The notes: a model not told the origin generated them from the letters alone. Shown: positions 3,823 to 60,234, numbered from the stretch's first letter. The stretch is DNA of 64,000 bases from a virus (IMGVR_UViG_3300037010_001573:64001-128000), one strand, 5' to 3'. A program made the numbers and translations.

Positions 3823-5547
3823 TTAAGTTTTTTTATTCCCACAACCTTTAAGTGTATTTTTTATTTCATTGTTTATATAATTATTCATATTTATTATACT
3901 TTCTTGTAAAAGTCTTTGTCCTGTAAGTGTTATTGCCTTTGATATAAATTTATGCCCATCTGTATACCTCCATCCGTTTATAGCATAACAACCATAAACA
4001 TCGTTAAGTTTAATTTTGTAAGCATGTTGGCGTCTGTTATAAAAATCACCCATAATAGGATCTTTATCCACTTTAAACGCTTTTTTCATTAATACCTTAT
4101 ATTCACTCCTTTTATTAAACCAATCTGTCAATATATCACAAACAACGCTTGGTCTATCTTTTCTAAATAAAACACCCGGAGCTGAAATTGTCCAGTTTTC
4201 TTTTTCTATTAATTCCAATATTTTTCCTGCTTTAACAGTAGAACGAATAACAGATTTAGATGGTGTTAATCTTTCAATTTGTAATTCATATTCTGGATCT
4301 AGTTCTTTAAGTTCTTTAAGAGACCATTGATTATCATATTTATCTCTATTTACAATACGACCTATTAAAGTTTCAATACCTATATTCAATGAACGTATAA
4401 TAGAAGGGTATAAAGATGTAAAATCCAAGTCAATAACCCATTCATACAAACCTGGGACTGGATCTTTTAAATAACCACCTGCATATTCTTCTTTGATATC
4501 CTGTAGAGAAGGATTATAAGTGGTAGGTTTGTTAGGAGAAACAATATTATTACGTTTTAAATATGTTAATATAGCTCCTTCATTTAATACAGTAGACATG
4601 TATATTTGTTCATAAGGAACATGACATAAATGGCAAACAGTAATAGTTAAATCAATAAATTTCAGTTTTTTTTCTAATTCAACAAGAATTTCAACATCTC
4701 GAATATTATAATCGATGAATTTATCAACATCATCAACAAACAGTTTATCTAAAGAACCCAAATATTCGATTTTGCCTAAATTTACGTACTTTTCACCAAT
4801 ATCACCTAATTTGTAAGATGGTTCTTGCGCAGTAACATATTTTTTAAACAACAACATGTAATCTAAATGGTTAAGACCCGCTATTTTTGTTGTTTTAACT
4901 CCTCTAAAATCATTTTCATCGACCTTATTTAACGGTGATAAACGCACGGCCTCTGTTTTTCCGCATATTTTGGCGATTCTAGAGTAAAGATACGGTATAT
5001 CGAAGAATTCGCTGTTCCATCCTGATATTATTGTTGGGTCTATTTCATCCCACATGTCTAAGAAGCGGTTTAATAAATCCGCTTCATCTGAACATGGTAT
5101 TATATGTTTATTTCCTAATATTGAAGATTTTAATTTAGATTTTTCATCTAAAATATAACAATAATATATTTTTGTATTATTGTCATACAAAGCTATGGAT
5201 GTTATTTTTCCTTGTGGGTTTCTAACACTATCTTGTGTAAGAGCACCAGCAATTTCACATTCGATATCTAAATAAACTAAATTTTGAAAAGAAGGAACAT
5301 CATCTGAATCTGAATATGCATCTACTAATACTCTAGTGTATTTGTCTACATCACTTTCAAAAACAGCAATTTCTTTATAATCGTATGTTTTTGTAGGAGA
5401 CACACGTTTACCATCTATCGTCTTGAATTCACCAGCATCATCCAATCTATAACCGGTCGCACGATATGGGAAAGATACCCACCCTTTTTTATCGTCTTTT
5501 AAATGATACTCTTTAGTACCTCTATTGTAGTATATTGATTGATACAA
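3823..5547 (-). CDS. Family B DNA polymerase, N-terminal piece (3'-5' exonuclease, motifs A and B)
   Basis: YLDIECE, GWNSEFFDIPY, YNIRDV, DLDFTSLYPSII, KIKLNDVYG; lacks DTDS, which is in 2254..3150. Confidence 0.95.
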   Translation of the reverse strand: MYQSIYYNRGTKEYHLKDDKKGWVSFPYRATGYRLDDAGEFKTIDGKRVSPTKTYDYKEIAVFESDVDKYTRVLVDAYSDSDDVPSFQNLVYLDIECEIAGALTQDSVRNPQGKITSIALYDNNTKIYYCYILDEKSKLKSSILGNKHIIPCSDEADLLNRFLDMWDEIDPTIISGWNSEFFDIPYLYSRIAKICGKTEAVRLSPLNKVDENDFRGVKTTKIAGLNHLDYMLLFKKYVTAQEPSYKLGDIGEKYVNLGKIEYLGSLDKLFVDDVDKFIDYNIRDVEILVELEKKLKFIDLTITVCHLCHVPYEQIYMSTVLNEGAILTYLKRNNIVSPNKPTTYNPSLQDIKEEYAGGYLKDPVPGLYEWVIDLDFTSLYPSIIRSLNIGIETLIGRIVNRDKYDNQWSLKELKELDPEYELQIERLTPSKSVIRSTVKAGKILELIEKENWTISAPGVLFRKDRPSVVCDILTDWFNKRSEYKVLMKKAFKVDKDPIMGDFYNRRQHAYKIKLNDVYGCYAINGWRYTDGHKFISKAITLTGQRLLQESIINMNNYINNEIKNTLKGCGNKKT

Positions 5548-5654
5548 AACCTTTGTTTTAAATTAATAACCTTTATATAAATAAATATATTATTTTTTCT
5601 TTTTTGGGGTAATATTTTCTTTTTTTCTTAGATAATGCTTCAGTAGCATCTGCT

Positions 5655-5885
5655 TCAAGTTGATTTATCCTCCTTAACATCTGATGCGCGTTCATTGATA
5701 ACAGAAGATTGAGGATGTGTATTATCTTCATCTTGTTTAATATCTGGTTGTTCCTCAACCACCATATCTTTTAAAGCAGGTTGCCCTTTTGTAAGTTGAT
5801 AAGAAATTAAACCAGCCATGGTTACTATTCCTAAAAAAAGCAATATTACTTCAGCTAAATTCATTGTTGAAATTGTGTTTATCAT
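5655..5885 (-). CDS. Hypothetical membrane protein
   Basis: N-terminal hydrophobic helix followed by acidic tail. Confidence 0.5.
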   Translation of the reverse strand: MINTISTMNLAEVILLFLGIVTMAGLISYQLTKGQPALKDMVVEEQPDIKQDEDNTHPQSSVINERASDVKEDKST

Positions 5886-5952
5886 TTTGTTTATTTTATT
5901 AATAATATAAAATTGTGATGCTAAATATAAAAAATCCTAAAATTAATCTATT

Positions 5953-6099
5953 TTACTCTACAAAGTCTTCATCTTTTAAATCTTCACCACCAACACCCAT
6001 AGGTGTCCAAGATGCTTGTATTTTATCTAAATGAATCCCCAATGTTACTTCATAATTAGGATCATTTAAATTTATGAAAATATTATCCGTTATTCTCAT
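5953..6099 (-). CDS. Small hypothetical protein (48 aa)
   Basis: Manual translation MRITDNIFINLNDPNYEVTLGIHLDKIQASWTPMGVGGEDLKDEDFVE; fills the gap below the MazG-like gene. Confidence 0.45.
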   Translation of the reverse strand: MRITDNIFINLNDPNYEVTLGIHLDKIQASWTPMGVGGEDLKDEDFVE

Positions 6100-6598
6100 T
6101 TGATTTTTTTATTTCTTCTTTAGTAAAAAATTGGTTTAGATTTGGGCGAAAATAATTTATACTTTTCATTACTTTTCTATCATCCGTTCTGTAAACAACG
6201 AAAACCTCTCCAACTTTTTCATAATGACAAGCTGCATTTTGTTCGATACTTCTTTTAGAGACTGTTGCGATTGCTTCTTCTTCAGTTTTACAAGTTTTCG
6301 ACAAATTTGAAGCTTGTACTTCTTGATAGGCCGGCCATATCTTATTCTTAAGACCGTGTAACATAGTACCGTTCCCAGTAGCAACATAAGTAATATCACA
6401 TAAAGCATCCAAAACTTCCACGATGTCGCCGTTTTCGCATGCTTCTCTATATTCTTCAAGCTCTTCGAGTATGAAATTATACACAAATTCCCATTCTTTT
6501 CTTTCGGGGATATTGGGTTCATAATTATTGGGTTTGGCCATAACAGCATTAAATTCTTCGACCTCATCTATAAAAGGCACATTTGGTTTTGTAATCAT
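6083..6598 (-). CDS. MazG-like all-alpha NTP pyrophosphohydrolase
   Basis: EELEEYREA...EVLDALCDITYV acidic metal-binding pattern of the MazG/dimeric dUTPase superfamily. Confidence 0.8.
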   Translation of the reverse strand: MITKPNVPFIDEVEEFNAVMAKPNNYEPNIPERKEWEFVYNFILEELEEYREACENGDIVEVLDALCDITYVATGNGTMLHGLKNKIWPAYQEVQASNLSKTCKTEEEAIATVSKRSIEQNAACHYEKVGEVFVVYRTDDRKVMKSINYFRPNLNQFFTKEEIKKSNENNG

Positions 6599-6601
6599 GG
6601 T

Positions 6602-7012
6602 TTATTTTGTTGTTTTTATTAAATAATCGGCAATTGGTTCAGCATTTATATCTTCCCATGGGTAGTATATAAATTCATCACCTGAATGAATAGCAGCATA
6701 TACATTAGGTGTGTATAAGGATGTATGTGGTTTAAAATGTAAAGCACCTGTATAAACACCATGTATGTTCTTTAATGTCTTTCCTGAATCACATATATCA
6801 TCTATAACTAAAGTATTAGGCATCATTATGTTTGTGTATGGTAATTTTAAAATATGAGATACCATAACAGCAGGTATTAATCCTCCTCTTGCAACCCCGT
6901 GGATTGAATCTATATTTGGGTATTGGTTTTGGATATTTAAGCAAAGTTTATTAACCAAATATTCAACATCATCCCAACTTAAAAAGATTTTATTTTGTGA
7001 TTTTAATGACAT
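6602..7012 (-). CDS. Type I phosphoribosyltransferase (Gpt/Hpt-like purine PRTase)
   Basis: GVARGGLIPA and PRPP-binding LVIDDICDSGKTL; C-terminal IYYPWE as in xanthine-guanine PRTase. Confidence 0.88.
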   Translation of the reverse strand: MSLKSQNKIFLSWDDVEYLVNKLCLNIQNQYPNIDSIHGVARGGLIPAVMVSHILKLPYTNIMMPNTLVIDDICDSGKTLKNIHGVYTGALHFKPHTSLYTPNVYAAIHSGDEFIYYPWEDINAEPIADYLIKTTK

Positions 7013-7013
7013 T

Positions 7014-7715
7014 TTATGAATTTAATTTATAATGGGATGCTATTTCTATTGATTTAAAATATTCATCTCTAACTTCAGGTTTGTTTTTGAAAACTCCTGT
7101 TAACTCACTTGTAACCATTGCTGATCCTTTATGATTTGTTCCACGACACGATACACAATTATGTTCTCCTACTATAGAAACGGCTACACCAATATTACCT
7201 TCACACACTTTACTAACTGAGTTATGTATTGCTACTGTAAGTTGTTCTTGGATAGCTCCTCTTCGCCCAAAATGTTCTACTAGTCTATTAAGTTTGCTCA
7301 ACCCAATAACACGAGCATCTTCTCCAGGAATGTAAGCAATATGAACACGTCCTGTTATTGTTTCATGATGATGGCTACACATACTTGTTAAAGGTATATT
7401 TGTTTGTACTACCATTCCTTTAAAACCATCACTAGGGAATGAAGATATTGTAGGGGGAGCATCATACCTTCCTTTCCATTGTTCTAAAACATATTTCTTA
7501 GCAATACGTCTTGGAGTATCAGCACTATTTGGATCATTTTTCCAATCACAACCTAAAGCAGTTAAAAAATTACCATAAGCTTCAGCAGCAGCATCGATCA
7601 TTACTTCTTTATCTTCCTTGCTTAAAGGAAAACCAGGAGCAACCCCATTAGCTAACCCAACAGGAACTACTTCAAGATCATTGTAATTTTTTCGTCTATT
7701 GTCTTCTACGTTCAT
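7014..7715 (-). CDS. folE: GTP cyclohydrolase I
   Basis: DTPRRIAK, SMCSHH, VIGLSKLNR, IQEQLT, HNCVSCRG motifs. Confidence 0.96.
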   Translation of the reverse strand: MNVEDNRRKNYNDLEVVPVGLANGVAPGFPLSKEDKEVMIDAAAEAYGNFLTALGCDWKNDPNSADTPRRIAKKYVLEQWKGRYDAPPTISSFPSDGFKGMVVQTNIPLTSMCSHHHETITGRVHIAYIPGEDARVIGLSKLNRLVEHFGRRGAIQEQLTVAIHNSVSKVCEGNIGVAVSIVGEHNCVSCRGTNHKGSAMVTSELTGVFKNKPEVRDEYFKSIEIASHYKLNS

Positions 7716-7899
7716 AAATTATTGTTTTTTCTTTATTTGAAAATTTATATCCTCTAAATGTAATAAAATCTAATTCAATTTCCAAAAAATTTGCAATTTT
7801 TCTTACATCATCTATGGTAATTAAAGCATTACACCATTGCCACCATATTGAATTTAATATATCATTTATTGATATACCTGTTATTTTTAAATCTATCAT
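7696..7899 (-). CDS. Hypothetical protein
   Basis: ORF fills the gap between queE and folE. Confidence 0.4.
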   Translation of the reverse strand: MIDLKITGISINDILNSIWWQWCNALITIDDVRKIANFLEIELDFITFRGYKFSNKEKTIIYERRRQ

Positions 7900-7920
7900 G
7901 CTTTTTATTCTTGAATATTA

Positions 7921-8709
7921 TCACACACATCTCTCACTCTCAAAGGCAATAATGTGGGGCCTCCAAGTTAATCTATACCCATTATCACGCACCCAATTAA
8001 ATAATCTTGGATATGATTGAAATAAAGCTTCCCTTGTATCCCCACTAGGCATAAACCATACTTTATCTTGTGGTATATCTAACATTCTAATACAACCTAA
8101 TATTTCTTCTAATGTTTGTTGATCTTCACCACTCCATACTGGTTTTAGATGGTAATCAGAATGATACGCAATTGATTTAGACATAGCTTCATAATTTAAT
8201 CTAAATTTATTATGTTGTTTTATCATTTTTTCATCAACAATATATCCTTGCGGTGTTGATACTCCTATTTTTGGATTAGAATTACTAAACTTAGGACTAA
8301 TGCTAAGTAAATTAATAGGCCAATCAGTTTCAAGAAAATGACTCCCTTCCGTTTCCATAGTAATAAAAATTCCTCTTTCATGTGCAAAATGTGTTAGTTC
8401 GTTTACTAATTTAGGCCACATAGTGGGACTCCCTCCTGTAAGCATCATCTCAGTAATGTGAGGGTTATCATCATACATTTTAATGATGTCTTGAAAAGAA
8501 TATTGAGCTTTTTCTGGGTGGATTGATGTATACCAACTATCACACCACCCTCCATCACCAAAAAAACAACGATGAGTGCATCCAGTAGTTCTTATTATCA
8601 CTGTAGGATAACCTGCTCTGCTTCCTTCTGATTGTACGGCCGTATATAATTCAATAATTGCTGACTTTTTATCTTTTTCAACTTCAGTCATTCTTGTTAT
8701 TTGTCCCAT
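7921..8709 (-). CDS. queE: 7-carboxy-7-deazaguanine synthase (radical SAM)
   Basis: ELYTAVQSEGSRAGYP, IRTTGCTHRC...WCDS radical-SAM cysteines, LTGGSP, METEG, SISPK. Confidence 0.93.
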   Translation of the reverse strand: MGQITRMTEVEKDKKSAIIELYTAVQSEGSRAGYPTVIIRTTGCTHRCFFGDGGWCDSWYTSIHPEKAQYSFQDIIKMYDDNPHITEMMLTGGSPTMWPKLVNELTHFAHERGIFITMETEGSHFLETDWPINLLSISPKFSNSNPKIGVSTPQGYIVDEKMIKQHNKFRLNYEAMSKSIAYHSDYHLKPVWSGEDQQTLEEILGCIRMLDIPQDKVWFMPSGDTREALFQSYPRLFNWVRDNGYRLTWRPHIIAFESERCV

Positions 8710-8760
8710 CTTATTCTAAGTGTTGGCTTAATAATTTATTTATATTTTTGTGAAGATACA

Positions 8761-8790
8761 AAAAGGTTGGCGAGAAGCCAACCTATTTTT
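8761..8790. terminator. Intrinsic terminator after the lysis cassette
   Basis: Stem AGGTTGGC/GCCAACCT (8764-8784) flanked by A and T tracts. Confidence 0.75.
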
Positions 8791-8805
8791 AATATTTTTT
8801 TAAAA

Positions 8806-9444
8806 TTATTTATGTAAACTTATTTTCCAATACATTCCTCCTTGAATAGATACGTTTTTATCAGTTCCATAACCAGCTGCTAGAAAAAATATACGATCTT
8901 GTTTTGTTTTATATAATACTGAAGGTCCAACAAAATTAATAATATTTGTTTTATCAAATCCAGAAATACCACCAATATATATTTGGTCTTTAGGTAATTC
9001 TTTTACGATTTTAGTATCATAAATTGTTTTCTGGATGATAGTCGCTTTATAATTTCTACCTTTAATTTGATTTTGAGTAATTGTGTCTGTTATATTAATT
9101 ATCCCCAAATGATTATCCAAAGTTAAAGTATCTTTATAAACATATGTACTATAAAAATCTTCTACTATTTTTAATGTATCCAAATTTTTAGGTGGTTTAC
9201 CAGGTTGTGGTAATGAACGCCATATTGTCTTGCCAGGTTTATATACGGTTGTTATTTTAGGTATATAAATTGTATCAACAGTGTGTTTTACAACTTCATA
9301 TTTCTTTCCATCAATTTTTACAACATTCTTAGATGTTTGGCTATTACAACTATCTGTTATATTAGAAAAAAATAAAAATATCATTAAACCTAGTATAAGT
9401 AAGGTTTTAAGATCTAATTTTTTAAATAATGATTTGTCTTCCAT
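8806..9444 (-). CDS. Putative spanin-like lysis protein
   Basis: N-terminal TM helix followed by SC; C-terminal amphipathic beta strands ending GGMYWKISLHK; last gene of the lysis cassette. Confidence 0.5.
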   Translation of the reverse strand: MEDKSLFKKLDLKTLLILGLMIFLFFSNITDSCNSQTSKNVVKIDGKKYEVVKHTVDTIYIPKITTVYKPGKTIWRSLPQPGKPPKNLDTLKIVEDFYSTYVYKDTLTLDNHLGIINITDTITQNQIKGRNYKATIIQKTIYDTKIVKELPKDQIYIGGISGFDKTNIINFVGPSVLYKTKQDRIFFLAAGYGTDKNVSIQGGMYWKISLHK

Positions 9445-9445
9445 T

Positions 9446-9901
9446 TTATTCTTTTTCTAATTCTTTAATATGTTCTGATATTTGTTCCTCAATAACATCT
9501 TTATGTTTGTCTATTTTATCTAGGTATTTTGTTACTAAGTTGTTTGGGATTAAATCTACTTTAGATGCGTTTTTTAAAATAGAAATAATTTGAAATATTA
9601 AAAAAGGAGGTAATATAGTCGAACTTAACCAATCAACCCCATGGAATCCTTTTTGAATAGAAAGAACTATTGAAAGTAATATTACCCAAAACACAAATGT
9701 TTTTATAACTTTAATAGCTTTATACGTCTTAAAACCTTCTCGTTTTATACCGGCCCACATACCAAAAAAACCATCAGCAAATATAACCAAGGTTATTGCT
9801 AAATATTGATACACATTATCTATAACAAGATGATTAAAATATGATATTACGAATGAGAATAAAGTTGTCAATGATAATGTTATTATAGTTGTTGTTTTCA
9901 T
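9446..9901 (-). CDS. Holin-like membrane protein
   Basis: Several TM helices, IISILKNA-like motif, charged C-terminus; next to the endolysin. Confidence 0.7.
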   Translation of the reverse strand: MKTTTIITLSLTTLFSFVISYFNHLVIDNVYQYLAITLVIFADGFFGMWAGIKREGFKTYKAIKVIKTFVFWVILLSIVLSIQKGFHGVDWLSSTILPPFLIFQIISILKNASKVDLIPNNLVTKYLDKIDKHKDVIEEQISEHIKELEKE

Positions 9902-9906
9902 ATAAC

Positions 9907-10518
9907 CTATTTAACGTATTCGTAATATTTTTTAGTTTTTAATTTTCTATCATCCAAACCAAGTATACCTCCGTTAATTCTTTTTGTAAGAGCTGTAATT
10001 GATTTGTCATCTACACCTTGATCACATATTGACCATAAATTGTTATTCTCAAAGAAAAACAATGCAGATTCAAAAGCATATTGTGTTGCTACCAGATCAG
10101 GATTAGCCATTATTTCTGGGATTGATAAGTATTTTGCCAACATCATATAATTTTCTCTACCCGTTGTTTGAATTGCTCCTCTTCCTTTAAACCTCCATCC
10201 ATCACCCGAAGCTTCGTTCCCATTACCCATTCTATTACAATAGACATGGTTGGCTATCTTTTCTGGTTGTCTAGTATATATTTCTGATATATTTCCAGGA
10301 AAATATTTTGGAAATGTTTCTTTTAACCCTTGTGCATTGTAATTTAAATTTTCAATGAAAATAGTAAAACCACCGGTTTCATGTGATATTTGTCCGAAAA
10401 AATGAGCAGCTCTAAATGGTGTTAATTTAAAGTAACTCATCGCTTTATTCATTGTTGTTGGACCAAAAATACCATCTGGTATTAATCCCAACTTTTCTTG
10501 TAAATTTTTTAAACTCAT
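9907..10518 (-). CDS. Endolysin, glycoside hydrolase family 19 with N-terminal peptidoglycan-binding segment
   Basis: LQEKLGLIPDGIFGPTT, HFFGQISHETGG, ENLNY, FKGRGAIQTTGRENY, KRINGG. Confidence 0.92.
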   Translation of the reverse strand: MSLKNLQEKLGLIPDGIFGPTTMNKAMSYFKLTPFRAAHFFGQISHETGGFTIFIENLNYNAQGLKETFPKYFPGNISEIYTRQPEKIANHVYCNRMGNGNEASGDGWRFKGRGAIQTTGRENYMMLAKYLSIPEIMANPDLVATQYAFESALFFFENNNLWSICDQGVDDKSITALTKRINGGILGLDDRKLKTKKYYEYVK

Positions 10519-10521
10519 GTA

Positions 10522-10779
10522 TTAATCTGGAATGTTTGGTGTATTTGATGATGGTTTTCTAAATGAAGCAAATTTTTCTATTACATCAGGTAAGAAACTA
10601 CCTAAAGTAATATACATAAAAGCATCAAATATATATTCATTTAATTTTAATTCTTTTCCCATAAAATTAGCAACAATATCAGCTGTAAACCCCAATACCA
10701 TTACTATAAAAGCCATGAACCCAATTATAACTTTTTCATTATAATCGTTTGATTTTTTAAAAATATCTGTAAAAGCCAT
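10522..10779 (-). CDS. Small two-TM protein, possible holin or antiholin
   Basis: Two hydrophobic helices; first gene after an ATATTTAT motif in the lysis cassette. Confidence 0.55.
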   Translation of the reverse strand: MAFTDIFKKSNDYNEKVIIGFMAFIVMVLGFTADIVANFMGKELKLNEYIFDAFMYITLGSFLPDVIEKFASFRKPSSNTPNIPD

Positions 10780-10857
10780 AATATATTATAGTTTTAAATT
10801 AATACACATCAGTAATACAAAACAATTAAAAAACAATAACATGTTTATTATAAATAT

Positions 10858-10882
10858 AAAAAAGCTCAGTAATAACTGAGCT
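10858..10882 (-). terminator. Intrinsic terminator
   Basis: Stem AGCTCAGT/ACTGAGCT with 4-nt loop and T tract on the minus strand. Confidence 0.75.
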
Positions 10883-10903
10883 CTCTTTTAAAATATTGTA
10901 TTA

Positions 10904-11152
10904 TTATAACATCTTTCTTATCTTCTGTCCTAAATCAGAATCATTGGGTGTTTGTTTAATGATTTCACGAGAAACTAAAATATAATCATCCATGTTACGA
11001 ATAACATAAAGGGGAGTTATTATTTCTTTTTTAATATCATTTTCTTTTTCAATTAAATCGTCTATAAGATGATGTCCCATTTTATATAGTTTCGTATGTT
11101 TTTTTAAAAATATCTGGTCTGCATGGGTAAAATTCTCCTTGTACTCCTTCAA
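10904..11152 (-). CDS. Hypothetical protein
   Basis: ORF in the operon; the true start may be downstream of the annotated one. Confidence 0.45.
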   Translation of the reverse strand: MKEYKENFTHADQIFLKKHTKLYKMGHHLIDDLIEKENDIKKEIITPLYVIRNMDDYILVSREIIKQTPNDSDLGQKIRKML

Positions 11153-11414
11153 TAATAAAATATCCTATACTAGCAACCATTACTCCTTCTAAAGTATGTA
11201 CATCTAAATAATTTGTTTCAATTGGAGTATTTCCTTCATAAGCAATATGTTTATTTACTTTTCCATTACTAAATATGTAAATATCATTGGTATTACTTCC
11301 ATTCCATTGAATCGCTTTTATTTTTACTGGTTTCTTACGATATATTTTCCAAGGATGGTTATTTCCTAGGAAGTTTTTATCATAATAATTTTGATCTAAA
11401 TTATCTAATCCCAT
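11082..11414 (-). CDS. Conserved phage hypothetical protein
   Basis: YRKKPVKIKAIQW...TLEGVM...GYFIIEGVQGEFYPCRPDIF pattern typical of a widespread phage family. Confidence 0.7.
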   Translation of the reverse strand: MGLDNLDQNYYDKNFLGNNHPWKIYRKKPVKIKAIQWNGSNTNDIYIFSNGKVNKHIAYEGNTPIETNYLDVHTLEGVMVASIGYFIIEGVQGEFYPCRPDIFKKTYETI

Positions 11415-11415
11415 A

Positions 11416-11826
11416 TTAAAATGTAATTGTAGTTATCTCCTTAATTACTATAGTCTCAGGATCAAAATCTTTATCCAATTGTTTAGCTACTGTTAATTCT
11501 AAAGATACTCCTTTTTTAATTTCTACCCATAGTTCTTTTACAAATTTAGAAGAAATTACTTCATTCTTATCATTTCTTTCTACAGTAAAGACTGCTACTT
11601 TTACTTGTTTATCCATATTGTTTGAATGTGTTATTGTTTGTTGTAATAAATAATTTGCTGTATTCCCGAATGCTTTTAAATCTGTTAAATAAGTTTCCCC
11701 ACTTGATGGAAGGTTTATTATATTAGTATTCTCAATATATGGTGTTGTGCTCCAATTATTTGGATCATATACATTCACCCCAATTGTTCTATTAGTTGTA
11801 TTGTTTGTATTTGTTTGATTGAACAT
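11416..11826 (-). CDS. Hypothetical protein
   Basis: 136-aa ORF in operon context. Confidence 0.55.
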   Translation of the reverse strand: MFNQTNTNNTTNRTIGVNVYDPNNWSTTPYIENTNIINLPSSGETYLTDLKAFGNTANYLLQQTITHSNNMDKQVKVAVFTVERNDKNEVISSKFVKELWVEIKKGVSLELTVAKQLDKDFDPETIVIKEITTITF

Positions 11827-11830
11827 AGTC

Positions 11831-12718
11831 CTAATTGTTGTATTCTTTTAATACTTTTTGAACTGCATCTCTTGCAGTCTCCCATGTTACGGGTCCTGTT
11901 TCGTCTGCATAAGCAACGGGATCTTTTCTTCCTAATTTAATAAATGCTTCGATACGTTCTATTGAAGATGCTGACTTATAGTCTGAGAACCAAGTGTAAG
12001 TCTCTACCCAACCTCCTTCGTCTTTATACCCATCAGTAATACAAATTGGCTTATAAGATGTATTAGTTCTTGAATAAACTTCATCAAAATCTAATTCTAA
12101 CTCTTCACATAATACTTCTCCATCTTTTAAGATATCGAATTTATTACCTTCAAGATAGGGAGTAAAATATCCTACTTTTTCGGCTCCCCAATTTCCTAAA
12201 CGGAAAGCATTATCATCAGCATCTCTAAATTCAACTCTACAATCCGGGTAAATCGAAAAATCCCCAGCATGGATTCCTAATGCAATATCACACTGCTCTC
12301 CTGTACGATTTGCAATTGATAATGCTACGGCTTGAGAAATAGAAGCAAACATCTTGTTTCTGTTAGGAACAACTGTTTCTTTCATATTATCTTGCTCGTA
12401 ATGACCTTCTGGTACATCTTTACCTCCTGTTACTAAAGCTGAATCTAATAGATCAACTAATCCATCTAGTTTGATTTGACGGTAATTTACAGGAATATAC
12501 TTACCAAAATCTTCTCCTCTGTGATTAGTTTCGTAAAAGTTACTGTTAACGTAATCTACTAATGATTGAGCTCTCTCTAGCTCTACTCTGTGTTTTTGAC
12601 CATAGTCAAAACTTATGGCCGTAACAGTTGAGTATTCTTTTAAACAACGTAACAATAAGGTGCTGCTATCCATTCCACCTGAAAGTGAAACCACTACATG
12701 TTTTTTTAAATTTTGCAT
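11831..12718 (-). CDS. queC: 7-cyano-7-deazaguanine (preQ0) synthase
   Basis: VVVSLSGGMDS PP-loop, FDYGQKH, TVVPNRN, GIHAGDFSIYPDCR. Confidence 0.95.
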   Translation of the reverse strand: MQNLKKHVVVSLSGGMDSSTLLLRCLKEYSTVTAISFDYGQKHRVELERAQSLVDYVNSNFYETNHRGEDFGKYIPVNYRQIKLDGLVDLLDSALVTGGKDVPEGHYEQDNMKETVVPNRNKMFASISQAVALSIANRTGEQCDIALGIHAGDFSIYPDCRVEFRDADDNAFRLGNWGAEKVGYFTPYLEGNKFDILKDGEVLCEELELDFDEVYSRTNTSYKPICITDGYKDEGGWVETYTWFSDYKSASSIERIEAFIKLGRKDPVAYADETGPVTWETARDAVQKVLKEYNN

Positions 12719-12787
12719 ATTTTTAATTTTTAAAACTTTACTCCGGTATTTACAAATTATGGAGCTTTAAACTTTATTATAATATAA

Positions 12788-13202
12788 TTATTCTTTTTTG
12801 AGTTTCCAACGATTTTTAGCGGCTTCTTGCATCTTTAACCGAATTTCTTCTGATGGTTTTCTCCCTGTAGCAGCTTTACGTATCTTTTCATTTCTCTCTT
12901 CAGTATAAATTTTATCTTTCCAATCTGATATGTCCCTTTCCTTGGAGATAATCTCTAAGTTTTTGGTTTCTTTCTTGGGATGATTCTACATTCCATTTCC
13001 AATTTTTACCCTTATTAGCTCCTTTGTTACCACAATTTGTAGTGTCTTTTAATTTCCAGGTTTTACCTTGAGTGGTACTTTTTCCTATCATTCTTTTAGA
13101 TTGAGATTGTTTCCATTCTATAGTTTGAGATACAGGGTCATAACTTTTGTTTATTTTATTATAAAATAAAGGATTATTAGAGGCATCATAATATCTATTC
13201 AA
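12788..13202 (-). pseudogene. Degenerate homing endonuclease remnant (NUMOD3-type tail; catalytic domain missing; frameshifted)
   Basis: ORF 12912..13202 (YYDASNNPLFYNK...) continues in the +1 frame as ...KIYTEERNEKIRKAATGRKPSEEIRLKMQEAAKNRWKLKKE to TAA at 12788. Confidence 0.7.
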
Positions 13203-13238
13203 TGTAAATATATGAAAAAGTCAAAAGCTGCCATTTAG

Positions 13239-13283
13239 TTACATTCCTCCACTTAAGGATACCACAACATGTTTTTTAGACAT
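13239..13283 (-). pseudogene. Orphan 14-codon copy of the QueC N-terminus (MSKKHVVVSLSGGM-stop)
   Basis: Direct translation; KKHVVVSLSGGM is identical to QueC residues 5-16. Confidence 0.85.
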
Positions 13284-13343
13284 AATTTATAATCTAATTT
13301 GTGCCAGGTATTACTAGGATATAGGCAAATCCTTTTATAACTA

Positions 13344-13571
13344 CTATTTTTTCTCTCCTTCGTAAATCTTATTTCCGAAATATTCATCTAAAAATTCTCT
13401 TCGATAAAGCAATATAGTACCTTTGTAACGAGTATTATTAATTTGTCTTGTACCAATTGTTTCTTTTAGTTTTACAGCAGTATCAGCTACTTGTTTTCCT
13501 AAATCAGAACCTGCTGCTTTTCCTAAATAATCAAAAAGAGACATCATGTATGGGGGTTGTGTTTCTTGCAT
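13344..13571 (-). CDS. Hypothetical protein
   Basis: ORF in operon context. Confidence 0.6.
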   Translation of the reverse strand: MQETQPPYMMSLFDYLGKAAGSDLGKQVADTAVKLKETIGTRQINNTRYKGTILLYRREFLDEYFGNKIYEGEKK

Positions 13572-13699
13572 AACGATTTTATTTTAAATTTAAGTATTGA
13601 AAAATAACCAATAGCACCAGCTATTATTGGGGATGTATTTAATAAATGGGGGTGGCCTTCACCACAAGAACCAAACAAATGTCCTATTATTTCACCCAT
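13544..13699 (-). CDS. Small membrane peptide (51 aa) with CGEGHPH motif
   Basis: Manual translation MGEIIGHLFGSCGEGHPHLLNTSPIIAGAIGYFSILKFKIKSLCKKHNPHT. Confidence 0.45.
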   Translation of the reverse strand: MGEIIGHLFGSCGEGHPHLLNTSPIIAGAIGYFSILKFKIKSLCKKHNPHT

Positions 13700-13700
13700 C

Positions 13701-13844
13701 TTATTTAACCCCTTGAGATTTATAATGCTCTGCTTTTGAAAAATTATATGCAGATTGTTCTCTTCTTTCTAATTTTGCTTTTCCCAATGTTGGTAACCAC
13801 TCCATTAGTTGCATGTATTTACTTTTTGATGATGTTTTACTCAT
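13701..13844 (-). CDS. Small hypothetical protein (47 aa)
   Basis: Manual translation MSKTSSKSKYMQLMEWLPTLG...; tightly packed between neighbours. Confidence 0.45.
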   Translation of the reverse strand: MSKTSSKSKYMQLMEWLPTLGKAKLERREQSAYNFSKAEHYKSQGVK

Positions 13845-13850
13845 ATTTTT

Positions 13851-14639
13851 TTATTTATTACAAAATCTTTTAAATCTTTCTACATTAAATTTAATATCTT
13901 CTAATTGATTCTCCAAATTTAATTCCATAAATTCTTCTATTTTATTAGAGGGTTTTTCTAATAAACCAATATCACTATATCTGATGTTTAAAGCACCACA
14001 TATTATTGGATTTGAAGTATCAACAGAATTAATCATTCCTTTAGGCCAGTTATCTCTATAATGGGTAAATTCTTGAGGAGCAGAACATCCTAACAGATGT
14101 ATATAATGATGATCTTTAATTAAATTTTCATCTTTAAATTGTTCTAATAATAACACACGCCCAACAGCTTGGTTTGCTAATTTATTTTCAGTAGGACATA
14201 ATGTTTGGTATACTATAGAAGAATGATTAAAAGCAAAATGTTTATATCCAAGATCAATACAACTCTGAAATAATAATTTAATATCAGATACAGTTTCACC
14301 TTGTAATACAACCATCAATTGAGTTCTTTCAGGCATTTCATATTGTAACCAATGTTTAGCATTAACAGATGTTGTTATTTTGTCATTCCAAGCATCGGGT
14401 ACAATAAAAATATCAGGTTGAATTAGTTTTATTTTTTCACGTAAATCCGCTATAGTATGTGTTACACCTTCAAACAAACCATTATCCATTATGATAAATC
14501 TACCTTTTGCTCGAGCATCTATAAAATATTCTTTGTAAGTTTCATATTTATCTAACAAATGTGGTAAACAATATTCATAGTCATTCCATCCTAAACTATA
14601 AGGAAGCAAAGATAAAGGTAACTCATGTGAAATTTTCAT
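13851..14639 (-). CDS. TGT/DpdA-like transglycosylase-fold protein
   Basis: IIMDNGLFE (cf. TGT/DpdA DSG/DNG motif), FIVPD, HLLG and SVDTS (cf. catalytic Asp strand); lies between queC and queD. Confidence 0.6.
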   Translation of the reverse strand: MKISHELPLSLLPYSLGWNDYEYCLPHLLDKYETYKEYFIDARAKGRFIIMDNGLFEGVTHTIADLREKIKLIQPDIFIVPDAWNDKITTSVNAKHWLQYEMPERTQLMVVLQGETVSDIKLLFQSCIDLGYKHFAFNHSSIVYQTLCPTENKLANQAVGRVLLLEQFKDENLIKDHHYIHLLGCSAPQEFTHYRDNWPKGMINSVDTSNPIICGALNIRYSDIGLLEKPSNKIEEFMELNLENQLEDIKFNVERFKRFCNK

Positions 14640-14893
14640 TATCCTATAAATATTTTTAAATCACGTTCACTCATTATACCACTTTGTTTTTTAATAGAAC
14701 CATCTGTATTAACAACGACAGTTGTTGGAACATTTCTAATTTGGTATTCTATTATCAAATTGTTGGCTGAATCTACATCTATTGTTTCAAAATCAACATT
14801 CGGTGTTTGGTTAGCTACTTTATCAAAAGTAGGTTTATAAGATTGACAAGGTCGGCACCAAGTTCCACTAAATAATATTATTTTTTTCTTCAT
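14639..14893 (-). CDS. Thioredoxin
   Basis: WCRPC active site, IRNVPT. Confidence 0.9.
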   Translation of the reverse strand: MKKKIILFSGTWCRPCQSYKPTFDKVANQTPNVDFETIDVDSANNLIIEYQIRNVPTTVVVNTDGSIKKQSGIMSERDLKIFIG

Positions 14894-14898
14894 TTTTA

Positions 14899-15735
14899 TT
14901 ATTTTATTTTTCTATCATCGTATTCCAAAACTCCTTTAGAATCAGCATATGCTTTTATTTCATCAAACCGGGATATTCTAAAATTCTCACGTTCTTTTTC
15001 AGTAATACTTGCTGCTTTTACTTCAGTCCAACAGTTTGGGGTTTCATATATAACAACTCTATGAATTTTCAAACCTGTCGTTGAGTTTTTATACACTTCA
15101 TCAAACAATATTTCCATTGCTAAGAATACTTCACGTGAAATATTCTCAACAGAAGGATTACAATATTCTCCACGACCGTTTAAAGACATTTCCCATAATT
15201 TGGTACCGTATTCTTTAGTAGTATCGATAAGTTTTGTGTCTTTTGGGTTAAGAATCATACCATGATCTAATATATCATCAATCCATTGACAACCAACACG
15301 TTTGATTTCTTTAAAATCAATTGCATATCCTATTTCATCCATATTTTCAAAGGAAAACGTTAATTCGTAAAGATAAGTGTGTCCCACTTTATTAACATAG
15401 AGACTCTTTATTCTCTATTTCTTATAGTTTCCTATAAGTTTGGACTATATCATCACCAATTGGTGTTGGGCGCTCGTGGAGGTAGTATTGTTAGGCTCAA
15501 CCTCTAGTCTCTGAACTTTTTTAATCCCTTTATCCTAGATTAAACTTAGCTGCTGATTTACTACTTAGTATACTTAATTTTGTATATACCTTTATGGCTT
15601 TAGTGTTCCAGCAATTCACCCAATTTTATATCCACCGACTCTTTAATGGATATTGAAGCACTTCATAAATTCATTCATTACTCTGTGTCCCGAATCAAAA
15701 TTACCTTTTCTAGATATATATTGAGTTTTATTCAT
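14899..15735 (-). CDS. queD: 6-carboxytetrahydropterin synthase, spliced: exon 1 15735-15646, exon 2 15384-14899 (191 aa)
   Basis: Exon 1 MNKTQYISRKGNFDSGHRVMNEFMKCFNIH joined to exon 2 GHTYLYELTF rebuilds the CxxxHGH active-site motif; also has NPSVENI and YETP. Confidence 0.92.
15385..15645 (-). ncRNA. Group I self-splicing intron, 261 nt, no ORF
   Basis: Exon ends in U with IGS GUGGAUAU pairing to AUAUCCAU; P3 UUGGGUG/CGCCCAA; P4 UUGCUG/CAGCAG; R UCAGAGACUA; S GAUAUAGUCC; P9 CUUAUAG-GAAA-CUAUAAG; terminal G. Confidence 0.93.
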
Positions 15736-15742
15736 TTTAACT

Positions 15743-15988
15743 TTAATTTTTTAATACAGAATGCACAATTAATTTATCCCCAATAAATTGTTTTTGTATG
15801 TTATATTTAATAAATGACAACAATCCAATTCTAACAACAGAAACGCTTTCACCTTTTTTATTATTAGTTAATCTTTGTTTTGTTCTGTTTTTTTGAGAAG
15901 GTCCTTGAATATAAGGGTTTTCTTGTGTAATAGGGTTAACTAAAACACCATTCTCATAAATTTTTACATAAGGTACATTTTTTTTCAT
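15743..15988 (-). CDS. Hypothetical protein
   Basis: 81-aa ORF just upstream of queD exon 1. Confidence 0.6.
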   Translation of the reverse strand: MKKNVPYVKIYENGVLVNPITQENPYIQGPSQKNRTKQRLTNNKKGESVSVVRIGLLSFIKYNIQKQFIGDKLIVHSVLKN

Positions 15989-16170
15989 TATTCTTCTATT
16001 TTAAAATTTATAATTTTTTTTTCTAAATCATCAACAATATTACTTATCTCATCAACTTGAGATTCGGTTATTTCATTTTTATTTGAGTATTTTTCCCTGA
16101 TTGAACGTTCTAGCTCAATCAGGTACTCTTGAAATTTATCCTCTTTTTCCATAACTAAATGTACAAACTT

Positions 16171-16370
16171 TTATTTAGATTTCCAAATATAACCAAAGGC
16201 TGTTTTTTATCTTCCTTTTAAACATACCGTTATACAGGAGTTGTTTATTGATTTATATAAGCTTTTTAAGGCTTCTAATATAGATTTAAATTCTTTAATT
16301 AAATTTCCTTGAAAATCGTATTGCTTAATAGATTTACTAAATCTTTCACTAACTGGTTGGGGTTTTGGTT
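16171..16370 (-). pseudogene. NUMOD1-type homing endonuclease tail remnant downstream of nrdA
   Basis: Manual translation KSIKQYDFQGNLIKEFKSILEA...CITVCLKGR*KTAFGYIWKSK; similar to the C-terminus of 3153..3782, with an in-frame TAA and no start. Confidence 0.7.
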
Positions 16371-16429
16371 TGCTATTGGCTTTACTTATTTGGCTTTATA
16401 TTCATATGTAAAAGATCAAAATATTATGC

Positions 16430-18160
16430 TTAACCCTCACAAGAAGAACAAAGATTTTCAACTGTACGTTGGAGGTTGTCCCCCCTCAAAACAGACTCGG
16501 TTCTTAAATAATATAACGTTTTAATACCAAGAATATGTGCTTCTTTATGAACCATACTTATCCATTTGGGTGTATCATTTGGATCAAATGATAAATTTAA
16601 AGACATAGCTTGGTCAATATATTGTTGTCTAATACCTGCTTGTCTTACAATTTCTAATTGATTTATCTCTTTGAATGTTAAAAATATTTCTTTTTCTTCA
16701 TCTGATAATATGTAATCAGGTAATCCTACTACAGAACCTTGATCTCTTAAGATTTGATCCCAAACACTATCAATATTAAAACCTTTAGCATCTAATACTG
16801 TTTCTAATATTGGGTTTTTCTTGATGAATACACCTTTAGCGGTTTTTAAATTAAAAACATTTGCGGGGATAGGTTCAGTTGATGCTGATACTCCACCAGA
16901 TATATTAGCATTAGATACTGTTGGAGCAGTTGCACAATGGTGTGTGTGTCTTAAACCAGTTCCTTTACACCATTCTGGTTCTCCATATTCTTTTGCTTGT
17001 TCTTTAGAAGCTTTTATTGCTTCTTGTTCTATAAAACCAAAAATCTGTCGCGTGTATGTGTCAGATTGTAACCCAACATAAGGTAAATTTTTAGATTGTA
17101 AAAAAGTATGCCATCCTAATACCCCAATACCAATTGCTCTACCTTTTATGGCAGAACGTACCGTATTTTCAAAGAATTTAATATTTTTTGCTCTATCTAT
17201 AAACTCTTGTAATACTCCTTCTAAAAACCAACATGTTAGTTCAGGTAAAGACATACCATTTTCAAATTTATAATCTTTCCACTCATCCCATCTAGCTAAA
17301 TTTAATGAAGATAAACAACATACAAATGAATGAAGTTCATCGGTATAAAGCGCGATCTCTGAGCATATGTTGGTCATGGTGACCTTTAAGTTATTTTGTT
17401 TATACGCTAATGGATTCGCGTTATTTACATTATCTTCAAACATGATATAAGGCTCTCCTGTCTCTAATCTTGTTTTTAATATTTCACCCCATAATTTTAA
17501 AGATCTTGGATCTCTTTCATCTAATTTAGTCATAAAAGCATTATCTATAACAACACATTGATGTAAATTCAAACATTGTCTGTTAACATCTCCTTTAGGA
17601 CGTCTAATATTAAAAAACTCTTCAATATCCGGGTGGTTTATACTTAAATTTACAGAAGCTGCCCCTCTACGTACAGAACCTTGATTTGTTGCTAATATAG
17701 TTGAATCAAATATTTTAGCCCAAGGTACAACACCCTCACTAATACCATTGTCTTTAATATTTTTTCCTCTACCTCTAATACGAGATATACCGATTCCAAC
17801 CCCACCACCTTGAGAAGATAACCTCATTAATTCAGAATTAGAATGAGCAATTCCTTCAATAGAATCATCAACATCTATTCCGAAACAAGATATAGGCATT
17901 CCTCTTTCTGTTCCCATATTTGAAAATACAGGGGATGCAAGACATAACCAATTTTTAACCATTGCTTCGTAAAAATATGGTTGTAAATCTTTTCTTTTTA
18001 ATCTTTTAGCAGATGCTCTACTTACTCTAGCAAATGCCTTAAACATATCTTCATCATGCATTAAATATCCTTTAGATATAATACTTATCCCGATTTCATC
18101 GGCCCATGTTGGGTAGTTCTTACCCTTAACCCACGTACTGGTATCTACATGTAAACTCAT
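16430..18160 (-). CDS. nrdA: Ribonucleotide reductase class Ia alpha subunit (no ATP cone)
   Basis: ASPVFSN, PISCF, GGGVG, TNICSEI, VCCLSSLN, APTVSN, KTLYY, C-terminal CSSCEG. Confidence 0.97.
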   Translation of the reverse strand: MSLHVDTSTWVKGKNYPTWADEIGISIISKGYLMHDEDMFKAFARVSRASAKRLKRKDLQPYFYEAMVKNWLCLASPVFSNMGTERGMPISCFGIDVDDSIEGIAHSNSELMRLSSQGGGVGIGISRIRGRGKNIKDNGISEGVVPWAKIFDSTILATNQGSVRRGAASVNLSINHPDIEEFFNIRRPKGDVNRQCLNLHQCVVIDNAFMTKLDERDPRSLKLWGEILKTRLETGEPYIMFEDNVNNANPLAYKQNNLKVTMTNICSEIALYTDELHSFVCCLSSLNLARWDEWKDYKFENGMSLPELTCWFLEGVLQEFIDRAKNIKFFENTVRSAIKGRAIGIGVLGWHTFLQSKNLPYVGLQSDTYTRQIFGFIEQEAIKASKEQAKEYGEPEWCKGTGLRHTHHCATAPTVSNANISGGVSASTEPIPANVFNLKTAKGVFIKKNPILETVLDAKGFNIDSVWDQILRDQGSVVGLPDYILSDEEKEIFLTFKEINQLEIVRQAGIRQQYIDQAMSLNLSFDPNDTPKWISMVHKEAHILGIKTLYYLRTESVLRGDNLQRTVENLCSSCEG

Positions 18161-59703: not shown

Positions 59704-60234
59704 CTATAAATATTCAGAAATTGCATTTAACACAATTTTAATTCTATCTTCTGTTGTACCTGATATTTCAACTAAACGTTTAGGTGGGTATGTTTTTAAC
59801 AAATCAACAATTGTTCGATCAATCAGTAATCTATAATCTGGATCTATTGTACGAACTCCATTATCTTCTATCTCTACACCTATTGGTGATATGTAAAATA
59901 TGATATCATATTGATCAGATAAACAAGAAGCCAATTCTATATATCGTTTTTTCGCATTTTCATCAATGGATTTTGCATTATCTGTAAATGAGCATACATC
60001 CCATATGGTTCTATCAGTCAATACGTTATCTCGCAAAATTTCACTAGATCTTTCAGCTAAAAATATAATCTGTCCTGGTAAAGTAGAATCTGTATTTAGA
60101 GGGATACCTAAATCTCTTAAATATTTACTACGTTCAGTTGCTATAAAATAGTCTTTAAATTCTGGTAATTCAGATAATGCTTTGACTAATGTTGTTTTTC
60201 CACATGACATTGTGCCCGTAAATCCTATTTTCAT
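59704..60234 (-). CDS. P-loop kinase/ATPase (AAA_28/NadR-like; possible nucleotide kinase)
   Basis: GTMSCGKTT Walker A, LTDRTIWD, YDIIFY, EDNGVR. Confidence 0.8.
   Translation of the reverse strand: MKIGFTGTMSCGKTTLVKALSELPEFKDYFIATERSKYLRDLGIPLNTDSTLPGQIIFLAERSSEILRDNVLTDRTIWDVCSFTDNAKSIDENAKKRYIELASCLSDQYDIIFYISPIGVEIEDNGVRTIDPDYRLLIDRTIVDLLKTYPPKRLVEISGTTEDRIKIVLNAISEYL

Follow-up and report, generated by a model that had tools for sequence, protein, structure and literature searches.

A predicted DpdA3-type system for 7-deazaguanine DNA modification, with a linked purine phosphoribosyltransferase, in an uncultured aquatic phage

According to our sequence analysis, this uncultured aquatic phage is a carrier of the known DpdA3 gene set that replaces guanine in DNA by a 7-deazaguanine. 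The genes lie in the window (the whole analysed stretch of 64,000 nucleotides), which belongs to a 97%-complete genome of 161.7 kb, and they are surrounded by genes for replication and dNTP synthesis (Table 1). FolE, QueD, QueE and QueC are all encoded within 8.7 kb. A preliminary description had listed a MazG-like protein, a Gpt-like phosphoribosyltransferase (PRTase), FolE, QueE, QueC, a DpdA-like ORF and QueD, and all of them were recovered on the minus strand where it had placed them. PRTase and MazG directly follow folE, as had been noted, with gaps of only 1-3 nt separating the three genes. Both the gene set and the assignment of the DpdA-like ORF to the DpdA3 family support the earlier reading of the module as a phage system for 7-deazaguanine DNA modification, which we consider very probable. 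We give an even chance to our best explanation taken as a whole, namely a DpdA3 system with preQ0 as the final base and the PRTase as a recycler of guanine. The same span also holds holin, GH19 endolysin and DUF6808 genes (8806-10518), which lie outside the pathway.

Table 1. Features of the predicted 7-deazaguanine module and the associated kinase, with positions counted from the first nucleotide of the window.
Feature	Position	Strand	Evidence or remark
MazG-like all-alpha NTP pyrophosphohydrolase, last of the folE-PRTase-MazG trio	6083..6598	-	PF01503 39.5 bits; phrog_671 E 2.8e-28
Gpt/archaeal-type purine phosphoribosyltransferase, 136 aa, without flexible loop	6602..7012	-	phmmer to 1VDM; phrog_8995; PF00156 25.5 bits
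FolE, GTP cyclohydrolase I	7014..7715	-	PF01227 E 1e-42
QueE, radical-SAM 7-carboxy-7-deazaguanine synthase	7921..8709	-	weak Radical_SAM match; 82% identity to immuto QueE
QueC, 7-cyano-7-deazaguanine synthase, 295 aa	11831..12718	-	PF06508 E 8.5e-36; TIGR00364 E 2e-36
DpdA3-family transglycosylase (predicted), minimal TGT/DpdA barrel, 262 aa	13851..14639	-	homology, fold, motifs
Thioredoxin	14639..14893	-	PF00085 E 1.6e-14; 1-nt overlap with dpdA3 start
QueD exon 2	14899..15384	-	PF01242 E 2.2e-17
Group I intron, 261 nt	15385..15645	-	RF00028 88.1 bits
QueD exon 1, 30 codons	15646..15735	-	joined with exon 2
dNK/TMPK-superfamily P-loop kinase, phrog_2107	59704..60234	-	45 kb from que cluster

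FolE, QueD, QueE and QueC would together convert GTP into preQ0, QueD after splicing of its intron. The two exons of QueD (15735-15646 and 15384-14899) join to a protein of 191 aa, and the group I intron between them, which interrupts the Cx3HGH motif, covers the full RF00028 model (1-253; E about 2e-23) and passes its gathering score of 50 bits. No such interruption is present in the QueD homologs of L078 and L051. The queC gene shares 78% nucleotide identity with queC of phage immuto and its product is without a GATase domain; the earlier remark was that no gat-queC is visible in the window. The absence of queF, previously noted for the window, holds for the entire 161.7-kb genome, where the sole PF14489 match is FolE itself because the T-fold is common to both. 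Neither a formyltransferase, DUF6884 or second PTPS gene nor DpdN, DpdC-like or DpdL-like genes were found in this genome, and QueF or DpdN occurred within 10 kb in 0/80 related loci. Since QueF, DpdN, DpdC-like and DpdL-like genes are all missing, preQ0 is predicted as the final base, an assignment that we regard as fairly likely.

The ORF between queC and queD had been described as TGT/DpdA-like, and it proved to be genuine: by sequence, modelled fold and motifs it is assigned to the published DpdA3 family. While a Pfam search returned no match, the ORF is 33.5% identical to the 'DNA guanine transglycosylase' of immuto, 36% to CP220 gp056 and 24% to the DpdA3 of phiST, and tblastn against the founding members of the family (immuto DpdA, CP220 gp056 and phiST CGPG_00065) gave E 3e-29 to 7e-30. 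A profile built from the clade of the window's protein recovered the family members of both immuto (E 2.4e-55) and phiST (E 2.2e-11). The ORF also matches phrog_19058 (E 3.6e-34). The top Foldseek matches of its AF2 model (pLDDT 94.5) were all TGT, and the model aligns with TGT and the bacterial DpdA 7UI4 at Z 16.9 with an rmsd of 3.2-3.4 over ~230 residues (VIA). Residues D52-N53, D82, Q113-G114, H181xLG184 and D207 are invariant in six divergent DpdA3 members and may correspond to TGT D102, D156, Q203, G230 and D280. The protein consists of the barrel core only, with 262 aa versus 413 aa in DpdA 7UI4 and no CxCxxC...H motif; its mildly acidic pI is uninformative. In 44 of 80 related loci a thioredoxin gene adjoins DpdA3. 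Complete G replacement has already been credited to DpdA3 (Cui 2023), and three isolates link the family to full substitution of the DNA, namely immuto (100% fdPreQ1), phiST (100% dDG) and CP220 (100% dADG). Attempts to demonstrate its activity, including assays on E. coli DNA, are reported to have failed (Cui 2023), and this lack of a demonstrated activity for any DpdA3 counts against our best explanation.

In the mechanism that we propose, DpdA3 would swap guanine for preQ0, with phage DNA taken as the substrate after the published model; we lean slightly towards DNA, and not free nucleotides, as the place of the exchange. The PRTase would combine the released guanine with PRPP to GMP, thereby removing the base that competes for re-insertion and regenerating GTP for FolE, and such recycling would account for the position of the PRTase gene beside folE. 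MazG and the phrog_2107 kinase would act as nucleotide-pool helpers.

The closest isolate is immuto (2023, PMC10516641), which has QueD, QueE, PRTase, FolE, MazG, DpdA3, QueC, Trx and the phrog_2107 kinase in common with the phage described here. In contrast to immuto, however, our genome is without QueF or DpdN, so that preQ0 is the predicted base, its polymerase is PolB and not PolA, its QueD belongs to a different type and contains the intron, its DpdA3 is only 33% identical and its kinase is not located beside DpdA3. Campylobacter phage CP220 and Cellulophaga phage phiST share the DpdA3 family, and both encode a dNTPase and a kinase in its vicinity. In CP220 a PRTase is missing and an HD protein takes the place of MazG, whereas phiST resembles our phage in a FolE-MazG pair and a PRTase, but is without QueC, possesses DpdL and encodes its PRTase 17 kb away, where a dNMP kinase adjoins it. 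The bacterial Dpd system (DpdA 7UI4, DpdB, DpdC) also inserts preQ0 by means of the same barrel fold, and the PRTase also occurs on a Lachnospiraceae contig that encodes a ParB/DpdA-like/DUF6884 set. Bacterial Dpd modifies <0.1% of G, and differs from the phage system in that DpdA3 is 150 residues shorter, has no ParB-like partner beside it and is accompanied by no DpdC-like gene in the genome.

The linkage of PRTase and dNTPase to these genes is conserved beyond the window. A purine PRTase is present in 6/6 near-complete DpdA3 relatives, and the pairing recurs in immuto, phiST and a Brevundimonas phage. Pairing of the PRTase with que/DpdA was further observed on contigs with other DpdA types, where it lies in que clusters beside a TGT-like DpdA plus QueF (L111) or beside a ParB/DpdA-like/DUF6884 set (L155). 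Purine PRTases are otherwise nearly absent among 50,697 phage records. In G009, the enzyme in the PRTase-FolE-MazG arrangement is of the Hpt type (E 2e-25 to a solved HGXPRT), an unrelated, non-orthologous replacement that fills the same folE-MazG slot in this clade. A PF00156 search of CP220 gave no match. Synechococcus phage BUCT-ZZ01 encodes FolE, QueD, QueE and the PRTase, with neither DpdA nor QueC detectable, and some short contigs that carry no que genes encode remote members of the PRTase family; both observations count against our best explanation.

Complete replacement of a base is typical of pre-replicative pathways, which speaks for an alternative in which DpdA3 acts on the nucleotide pool. 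Here dGMP would come from the action of a dNTP pyrophosphatase, be it MazG, DCD-like or HD, and DpdA3 would exchange guanine for preQ0 on a free deoxynucleotide or deoxynucleoside. The product would be rephosphorylated by the dNK/TMPK-like kinase for incorporation by the polymerase, and the PRTase would recycle guanine into GTP for FolE. The complete-replacement systems of T4 (dCTPase, dCMP hydroxymethylase, dNMP kinase) and S-2L (MazZ, PurZ, DatZ) would then follow the same logic of dNTPase, base-changing enzyme and kinase, although their base is altered chemically, with no transglycosylase exchange and no free base released. The dNTPase slot near DpdA3 is filled by the unrelated MazG, DCD-like or HD families, which speaks for this alternative; G013 and G014, however, are without this MazG, and the DCD-like gene found there in its stead may have no role other than in the synthesis of dTTP. 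In CP220, the neighbours of DpdA3 are an HD/P-loop protein and the phrog_2107 kinase; in immuto and L105, they are MazG and this same kinase. The kinase of the window belongs to this PHROG, is found in 5/5 complete relatives and has deoxynucleoside and thymidylate kinases as its nearest folds, but it lies 45 kb from DpdA3, and kinases of this family are also encoded by Streptomyces phages that have no que genes. The salvage model has no need of the dNTPase slot and the kinase that accompany DpdA3, which counts against our best explanation. The MazG itself passes the Pfam cut-off (21.3 bits) and is 82% identical to its immuto homolog, and a sequence search yielded no relative of solved structure; its metagenome homologs far outnumber those of DpdA3 (6403 versus 1855), which counts against this alternative. 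The reduction of DpdA3 to a barrel core, the ADG nucleoside in the cytoplasm of infected cells and the failed E. coli DNA assays (Cui 2023) would fit a nucleotide substrate, but all characterised TGT or DpdA enzymes act on a polynucleotide, and we consider the alternative unlikely.

The PRTase scores just below the PF00156 cut-off of 26.3 bits and below that of NF006613 (45.5 versus 138 bits), and matches the P. horikoshii purine PRTase 1VDM at phmmer E 1.9e-10. With the archaeal-type enzymes (1VDM; S. solfataricus GpT-1 and GpT-2) and E. coli XGPRT it shares the PRPP motif (LVIDDICDSGKT, invariant), the N-terminal RGG loop and the C-terminal PWE motif, but the flexible catalytic loop that should precede the PRPP motif is missing (7 residues versus 33 in 1VDM), with ~26 residues absent between residues 56 and 64. 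Such a loop-less form is unusual for a salvage enzyme and counts against a role in guanine salvage. D71, D72, D75, K94 and W119 are invariant, and the enzyme keeps the DDxxD, Lys and Trp motifs known from 6-oxopurine PRTases. The cellular homologs are stand-alone archaeal and Chloroflexi enzymes that look like housekeeping enzymes. We posit that recycling of the released guanine is a more probable role for the PRTase than synthesis of a modified nucleotide, because DpdA accompanies it in all cases but one, because CP220 replaces all G without a phage PRTase, and because the 6-oxopurine motifs are kept and the cellular relatives resemble housekeeping enzymes. Guanine is thus its probable substrate.

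The preliminary description had instead proposed that the PRTase loads preQ0 or a derivative onto PRPP, that a kinase and the phage RNR make the modified dNTP, and that MazG removes dGTP while the polymerase incorporates the analogue. In the form of this route that we weighed, the base loaded would be preQ0 or CDG, and DpdA3 would be a back-up only. The tight packing of FolE, PRTase and MazG, the adjacent RNR and thioredoxin genes, and BUCT-ZZ01 with its CDG genes and PRTase are in keeping with this route, and a loop-less active site could admit 7-substituted bases. Asp75, the third Asp of the 6-oxopurine motif, nevertheless presumably contacts N7, an atom missing in 7-deazaguanine, and the route would also supply a deaza-GTP analogue to RNA polymerase. 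The precedent is TubE/ToyH of the tubercidin and toyocamycin pathways, likened here by gene context, in which a purine-type PRTase shares its cluster with FolE, QueD, QueE and a nucleotide hydrolase, TubE being specific for CDG plus PRPP (PMC6112128); the sequence family alone therefore does not settle the substrate of the phage enzyme. Those pathways, however, involve no transglycosylase, employ GMP-reductase-type tailoring and end in free nucleoside antibiotics, whereas no GMP-reductase or PurA/B-type tailoring enzyme is encoded among the ORFs of 3823-18160. No Streptomyces locus appeared among the 80 cellular PRTase loci listed. DpdA3 is universal in these phages and the PRTase is not, as CP220 illustrates, and the ordinary Hpt-type stand-in of G009, the co-occurrence with other DpdA types and the stand-alone cellular kin further disfavour loading of preQ0 as the main route, which we regard as quite improbable. 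The DNA-modification module, the DpdA-like ORF and the PRTase/dNTPase linkage of the earlier interpretation were upheld.

That the genes boost queuosine or preQ0 for host or phage tRNAs and leave virion DNA unmodified, which was the customary reading of que genes until DNA modification came to light, is hardly credible in view of the three fully substituted DpdA3 isolates, the location of the module among replication and dNTP-synthesis genes and the lack of an encoded bacterial-type TGT, DpdA3 being the only TGT-fold protein.

The DpdA3 system itself is of an already known kind. No discussion of the conserved association of a PRTase and a dNTPase with que/DpdA clusters was found in the literature searched. 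Replacement of guanine by 7-deazaguanine in virion DNA is a known means of restriction evasion. The pre-replicative idea had been proposed for Campylobacter phages and was then set aside in 2023; if exchange at the nucleotide level were true, guanine would be replaced before replication in DpdA3 phages.

According to our analysis, the locus is a further system of the DpdA3 kind. The IMG/VR virus record carrying it is 161,676 bp long and 97% complete; the window, its bases 64001-128000, has a GC content of about 30% with nearly all genes on the minus strand. Every gene listed in the preliminary description was found at the locus by gene calls and profile matches (see table), between RNR alpha upstream and an N-terminal piece of PolB downstream. 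Identity to Flavobacterium phage immuto, the closest isolate, varies from gene to gene (MazG and QueE 82%, FolE 55%, PRTase 50%, DpdA3 33%), and judged by this spread the module is a mosaic.

Features of the deazaguanine span, in transcription order
Feature	Position	Strand	Remarks
QueD exon 1	15735-15646	-	
QueD group I intron	15385-15645	-	261 nt; RF00028, 88.1 bits, E 2e-23
QueD exon 2	15384-14899	-	
Thioredoxin	14893-14639	-	
DpdA-like ORF (DpdA3)	14639-13851	-	followed by small ORFs
QueC	12718-11831	-	followed by two unknown ORFs
GH19 endolysin, holin and DUF6808-like gene	10518-8806	-	
QueE	8709-7921	-	
FolE	7715-7014	-	
PRTase	7012-6602	-	
MazG-like	6598-6083	-	last gene of the span

A lysis cassette thus sits between queC and queE. 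Neither its DUF6808-like ORF (8806-9444), which adjoins the holin and endolysin genes, nor ORF 11416-11826 showed any supporting sign of being a pathway gene. ORF 11082-11414 (minus strand, 110 aa), found in 11 of the 80 related loci, has a match to phrog_419, a family with no assigned function, and a weak one to the N-terminal part of a PHROG of nucleotide pyrophosphohydrolases. The thioredoxin gene and the start of dpdA3 share 1 nt. The two genes are neighbours in 44/80 loci, and the thioredoxin may serve the adjacent RNR only.

The ORF between queC and queD yields no match in Pfam or NCBIfam. It shares 33.5% identity with the 'DNA guanine transglycosylase' of immuto and 36% with gp056 of Campylobacter phage CP220, and matches CGPG_00065 of Cellulophaga phage phiST through a profile; DpdA3 was founded on these three proteins (Cui et al., 2023; PMC10516641). 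Its AlphaFold model (pLDDT 94.5) gives Foldseek alignments solely to tRNA-guanine transglycosylases, and VIA-align matched about 230 residues, at Z 16.9, with both TGT and the DpdA of PDB 7UI4, a DNA preQ0 insertase of 413 aa compared with 262 aa here. The window's enzyme is a bare barrel core without the zinc-finger motif, and D52-N53, D82, Q113-G114, H181xLG184 and D207 are common to six divergent DpdA3 members. Homology, fold and motifs bear out the initial assignment as TGT/DpdA-like and place the protein in the DpdA3 subfamily. Sequence-only PDB searches returned no match for DpdA3, its profile, MazG or the phrog_2107 kinase discussed below, and DpdA3 and this kinase were identified by fold search instead. 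The pI of DpdA3 (5.2-6.5) is uninformative on DNA binding. Among the six members is STASHLEY_00090 of Brevundimonas phage StAshley (L102:6975-7775), a 'hypothetical protein' encoded between QueE and DNA polymerase. It is missed by both pairwise searches and the clade profile, keeps all invariant motifs, and seems to be a highly divergent DpdA3 that has escaped annotation.

The intron interrupts queD within the Cx3HGH zinc motif; an Rfam scan of 11 kb at E 0.01 misses it, while a 371-nt scan detects RF00028 at 88 bits. Because it is a group I intron and the homologs on contigs L078 (71% identity) and L051 (63%) are uninterrupted, the split queD is probably functional once spliced. Its product (191 aa, HGH motif, C-terminal extension) is of another type than the immuto-like QueD, which has an HGY motif. 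This was seen on comparing window 14899-15735 with L006, L010 and L075. The immuto-like type was found in 44 of 80 relatives and the window's type otherwise only in L051 and L078.

The absence of queF, reported earlier for the window, holds across the whole record, where the sole match to PF14489 is FolE, through the common T-fold. The whole genome also lacks a formyltransferase of the DpdN type, DUF6884 and a second PTPS paralog of the DpdL type, and neither QueF nor DpdN occurs within 10 kb in any of the 80 related loci. The window's QueC is close to that of immuto, which must make preQ0 because the immuto QueF needs a preQ0 feed. Given these absences and this QueC, the predicted base is dPreQ0, and the locus probably specifies fully dPreQ0-substituted DNA; further modification by an unrecognised tailoring enzyme may occur. 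Immuto DNA carries fdPreQ1 in place of every G (Cui et al., 2023; PMC10516641).

The PRTase (136 aa) is related to archaeal-type purine PRTases (1VDM, E 1.9e-10; Sulfolobus GpT-1 and GpT-2; E. coli XGPRT) and scores just under the curated family cut-offs. It retains the PRPP motif with the third Asp, the conserved Lys and the PWE tryptophan, and its flexible loop is shorter by about 26 residues. The association of the PRTase with deazaguanine genes, whose survey across phages had been suggested earlier as a check, proved robust. Of six near-complete genomes carrying this DpdA3, five encode the Gpt-like PRTase. The sixth, G009, a complete relative with terminal repeats, encodes an Hpt-type HGPRT instead (174 aa, E 2e-25 to a solved HGXPRT), in the order QueE, small ORF, Trx, PRTase, FolE, MazG (G009:124957-128349); a non-orthologous enzyme has here taken over the slot. 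The Gpt-like PRTase was found in only 13 of 50,697 phage records, most of which have que genes (immuto, the phiST group, StAshley and BUCT-ZZ01); the 13 also include MaInes, a near relative of StAshley, and an unannotated 4-kb faecal contig. Hpt-type matches in the same set were mostly to unannotated records, MAG-derived contigs or a bacterial record. The PRTase adjoins FolE in immuto, forms a FolE-PRTase pair in StAshley, and adjoins a dNMP kinase in the phiST group. On a Bacilli-MAG contig (L111) it lies within a que cluster with a TGT-like DpdA and QueF; a 592-aa QueE with Hint/intein domains (L111:435-2213) adjoins these genes and FolE. On a Lachnospiraceae-MAG contig (L155:3053-7557), ParB-like, DpdA-like (303 aa) and adjoining DUF6884 genes are followed by QueC, QueD, PRTase, QueE and FolE. 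Other cellular homologs are stand-alone genes in archaea, Chloroflexi and CPR bacteria. The family is not exclusive to que clusters, since three distant representatives come from short contigs that carry no que genes; the neighbour of one of them is a DCD/dUTPase-like gene. CP220 reaches 100% dADG without any PRTase.

FolE and PRTase are followed by a MazG-type gene in the window and likewise in immuto, G009 and phiST. In the relative G013 the corresponding stretch (L075:13595-15334) runs FolE, PRTase, dCTP-deaminase/dUTPase-like gene. The PRTase-DCD pair of G013 recurs on an unrelated contig, L089. In CP220, the gene before DpdA3 encodes an HD/P-loop protein. The candidate kinase of the preliminary description (59704-60234), whose predicted structure resembles deoxynucleoside and thymidylate kinases, belongs to phrog_2107, a family that includes the 'thymidylate kinases' which adjoin DpdA3 or lie close to it in CP220, in immuto and on the immuto-like contig L105, and is present in all five complete relatives. 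DpdA3 is repeatedly accompanied by a purine PRTase, by a dNTPase slot and by a kinase. Because unrelated families occupy two of the three slots in different clades, the three activities probably belong to the DpdA3 pathway.

The combination of dNTPase slot and kinase is what would be expected of a T4-like or S-2L-like pre-replicative pathway, in which DpdA3 would exchange the base on a free nucleotide. We therefore retain this idea as a serious, if unlikely, alternative. Caution is called for: Streptomyces BE-cluster phages have kinases of this family but no que genes, MazG homologs outnumber those of DpdA3 more than threefold, this MazG is absent from two complete relatives, and no TGT-family enzyme is known with a mononucleotide substrate.

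For the PRTase itself, the most likely role is guanine recycling rather than nucleotide loading. It occurs with several DpdA subfamilies, is replaceable by an ordinary HGPRT, keeps its 6-oxopurine contacts and is not needed for full replacement in CP220, all of which fits a guanine-handling enzyme. TGT enzymes catalyse guanine-for-guanine exchange. Guanine would be the one metabolite released in bulk by the transglycosylase alone, and its removal by the PRTase would block its re-entry into DNA. The GMP formed, converted to GTP, would resupply FolE, which would explain why the PRTase gene adjoins folE.

The rival reading, raised in the preliminary description as a possibility, is that the PRTase loads preQ0 or CDG onto PRPP. 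This route has experimental precedent in TubE (PMC6112128), and a bulkier base could fit where the flexible loop is missing. Loading is also the most economical explanation of Synechococcus phage BUCT-ZZ01 (ON615601.1, about 69.8-72.6 kb), whose gene set resembles the tubercidin cluster: QueE-PRTase-x-QueD-FolE, flanked by two glycosyltransferases, with no QueC and no DpdA detectable in the genome by repeated searches, a weak negative since most of them also miss the StAshley homolog. The several DpdA types, the HGPRT swap in G009 and the lack of a PRTase in CP220 disfavour loading, and we regard it as improbable. The preliminary interpretation is partly supported, in that the gene module and the association of accessory genes stand.

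A modified-dGTP route was once put forward for Campylobacter phages, according to a passage in Hutinet et al. (2019; PMC6884629), and was dropped once DpdA3 had been found. Cui et al. (2023; PMC10516641) concluded that all such modifications are post-replicative, and could not make DpdA3 work in E. coli. The term 'phosphoribosyl' is absent from both papers, and no link between a PRTase and phage deazaguanine DNA was found in the literature searched. The conserved accessory enzymes of DpdA3 clusters are real and unexplained in print, and the locus sharpens a testable point, namely whether their part is to recycle guanine or to supply a pre-replicative route. Replacement of every guanine by a 7-deazaguanine is known from DpdA3 phages only, and the family, with at least 1855 related metagenome proteins, represents a large lineage. 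Full preQ0 substitution is a combination so far unreported for DpdA3, and the locus adds such a predicted lineage.
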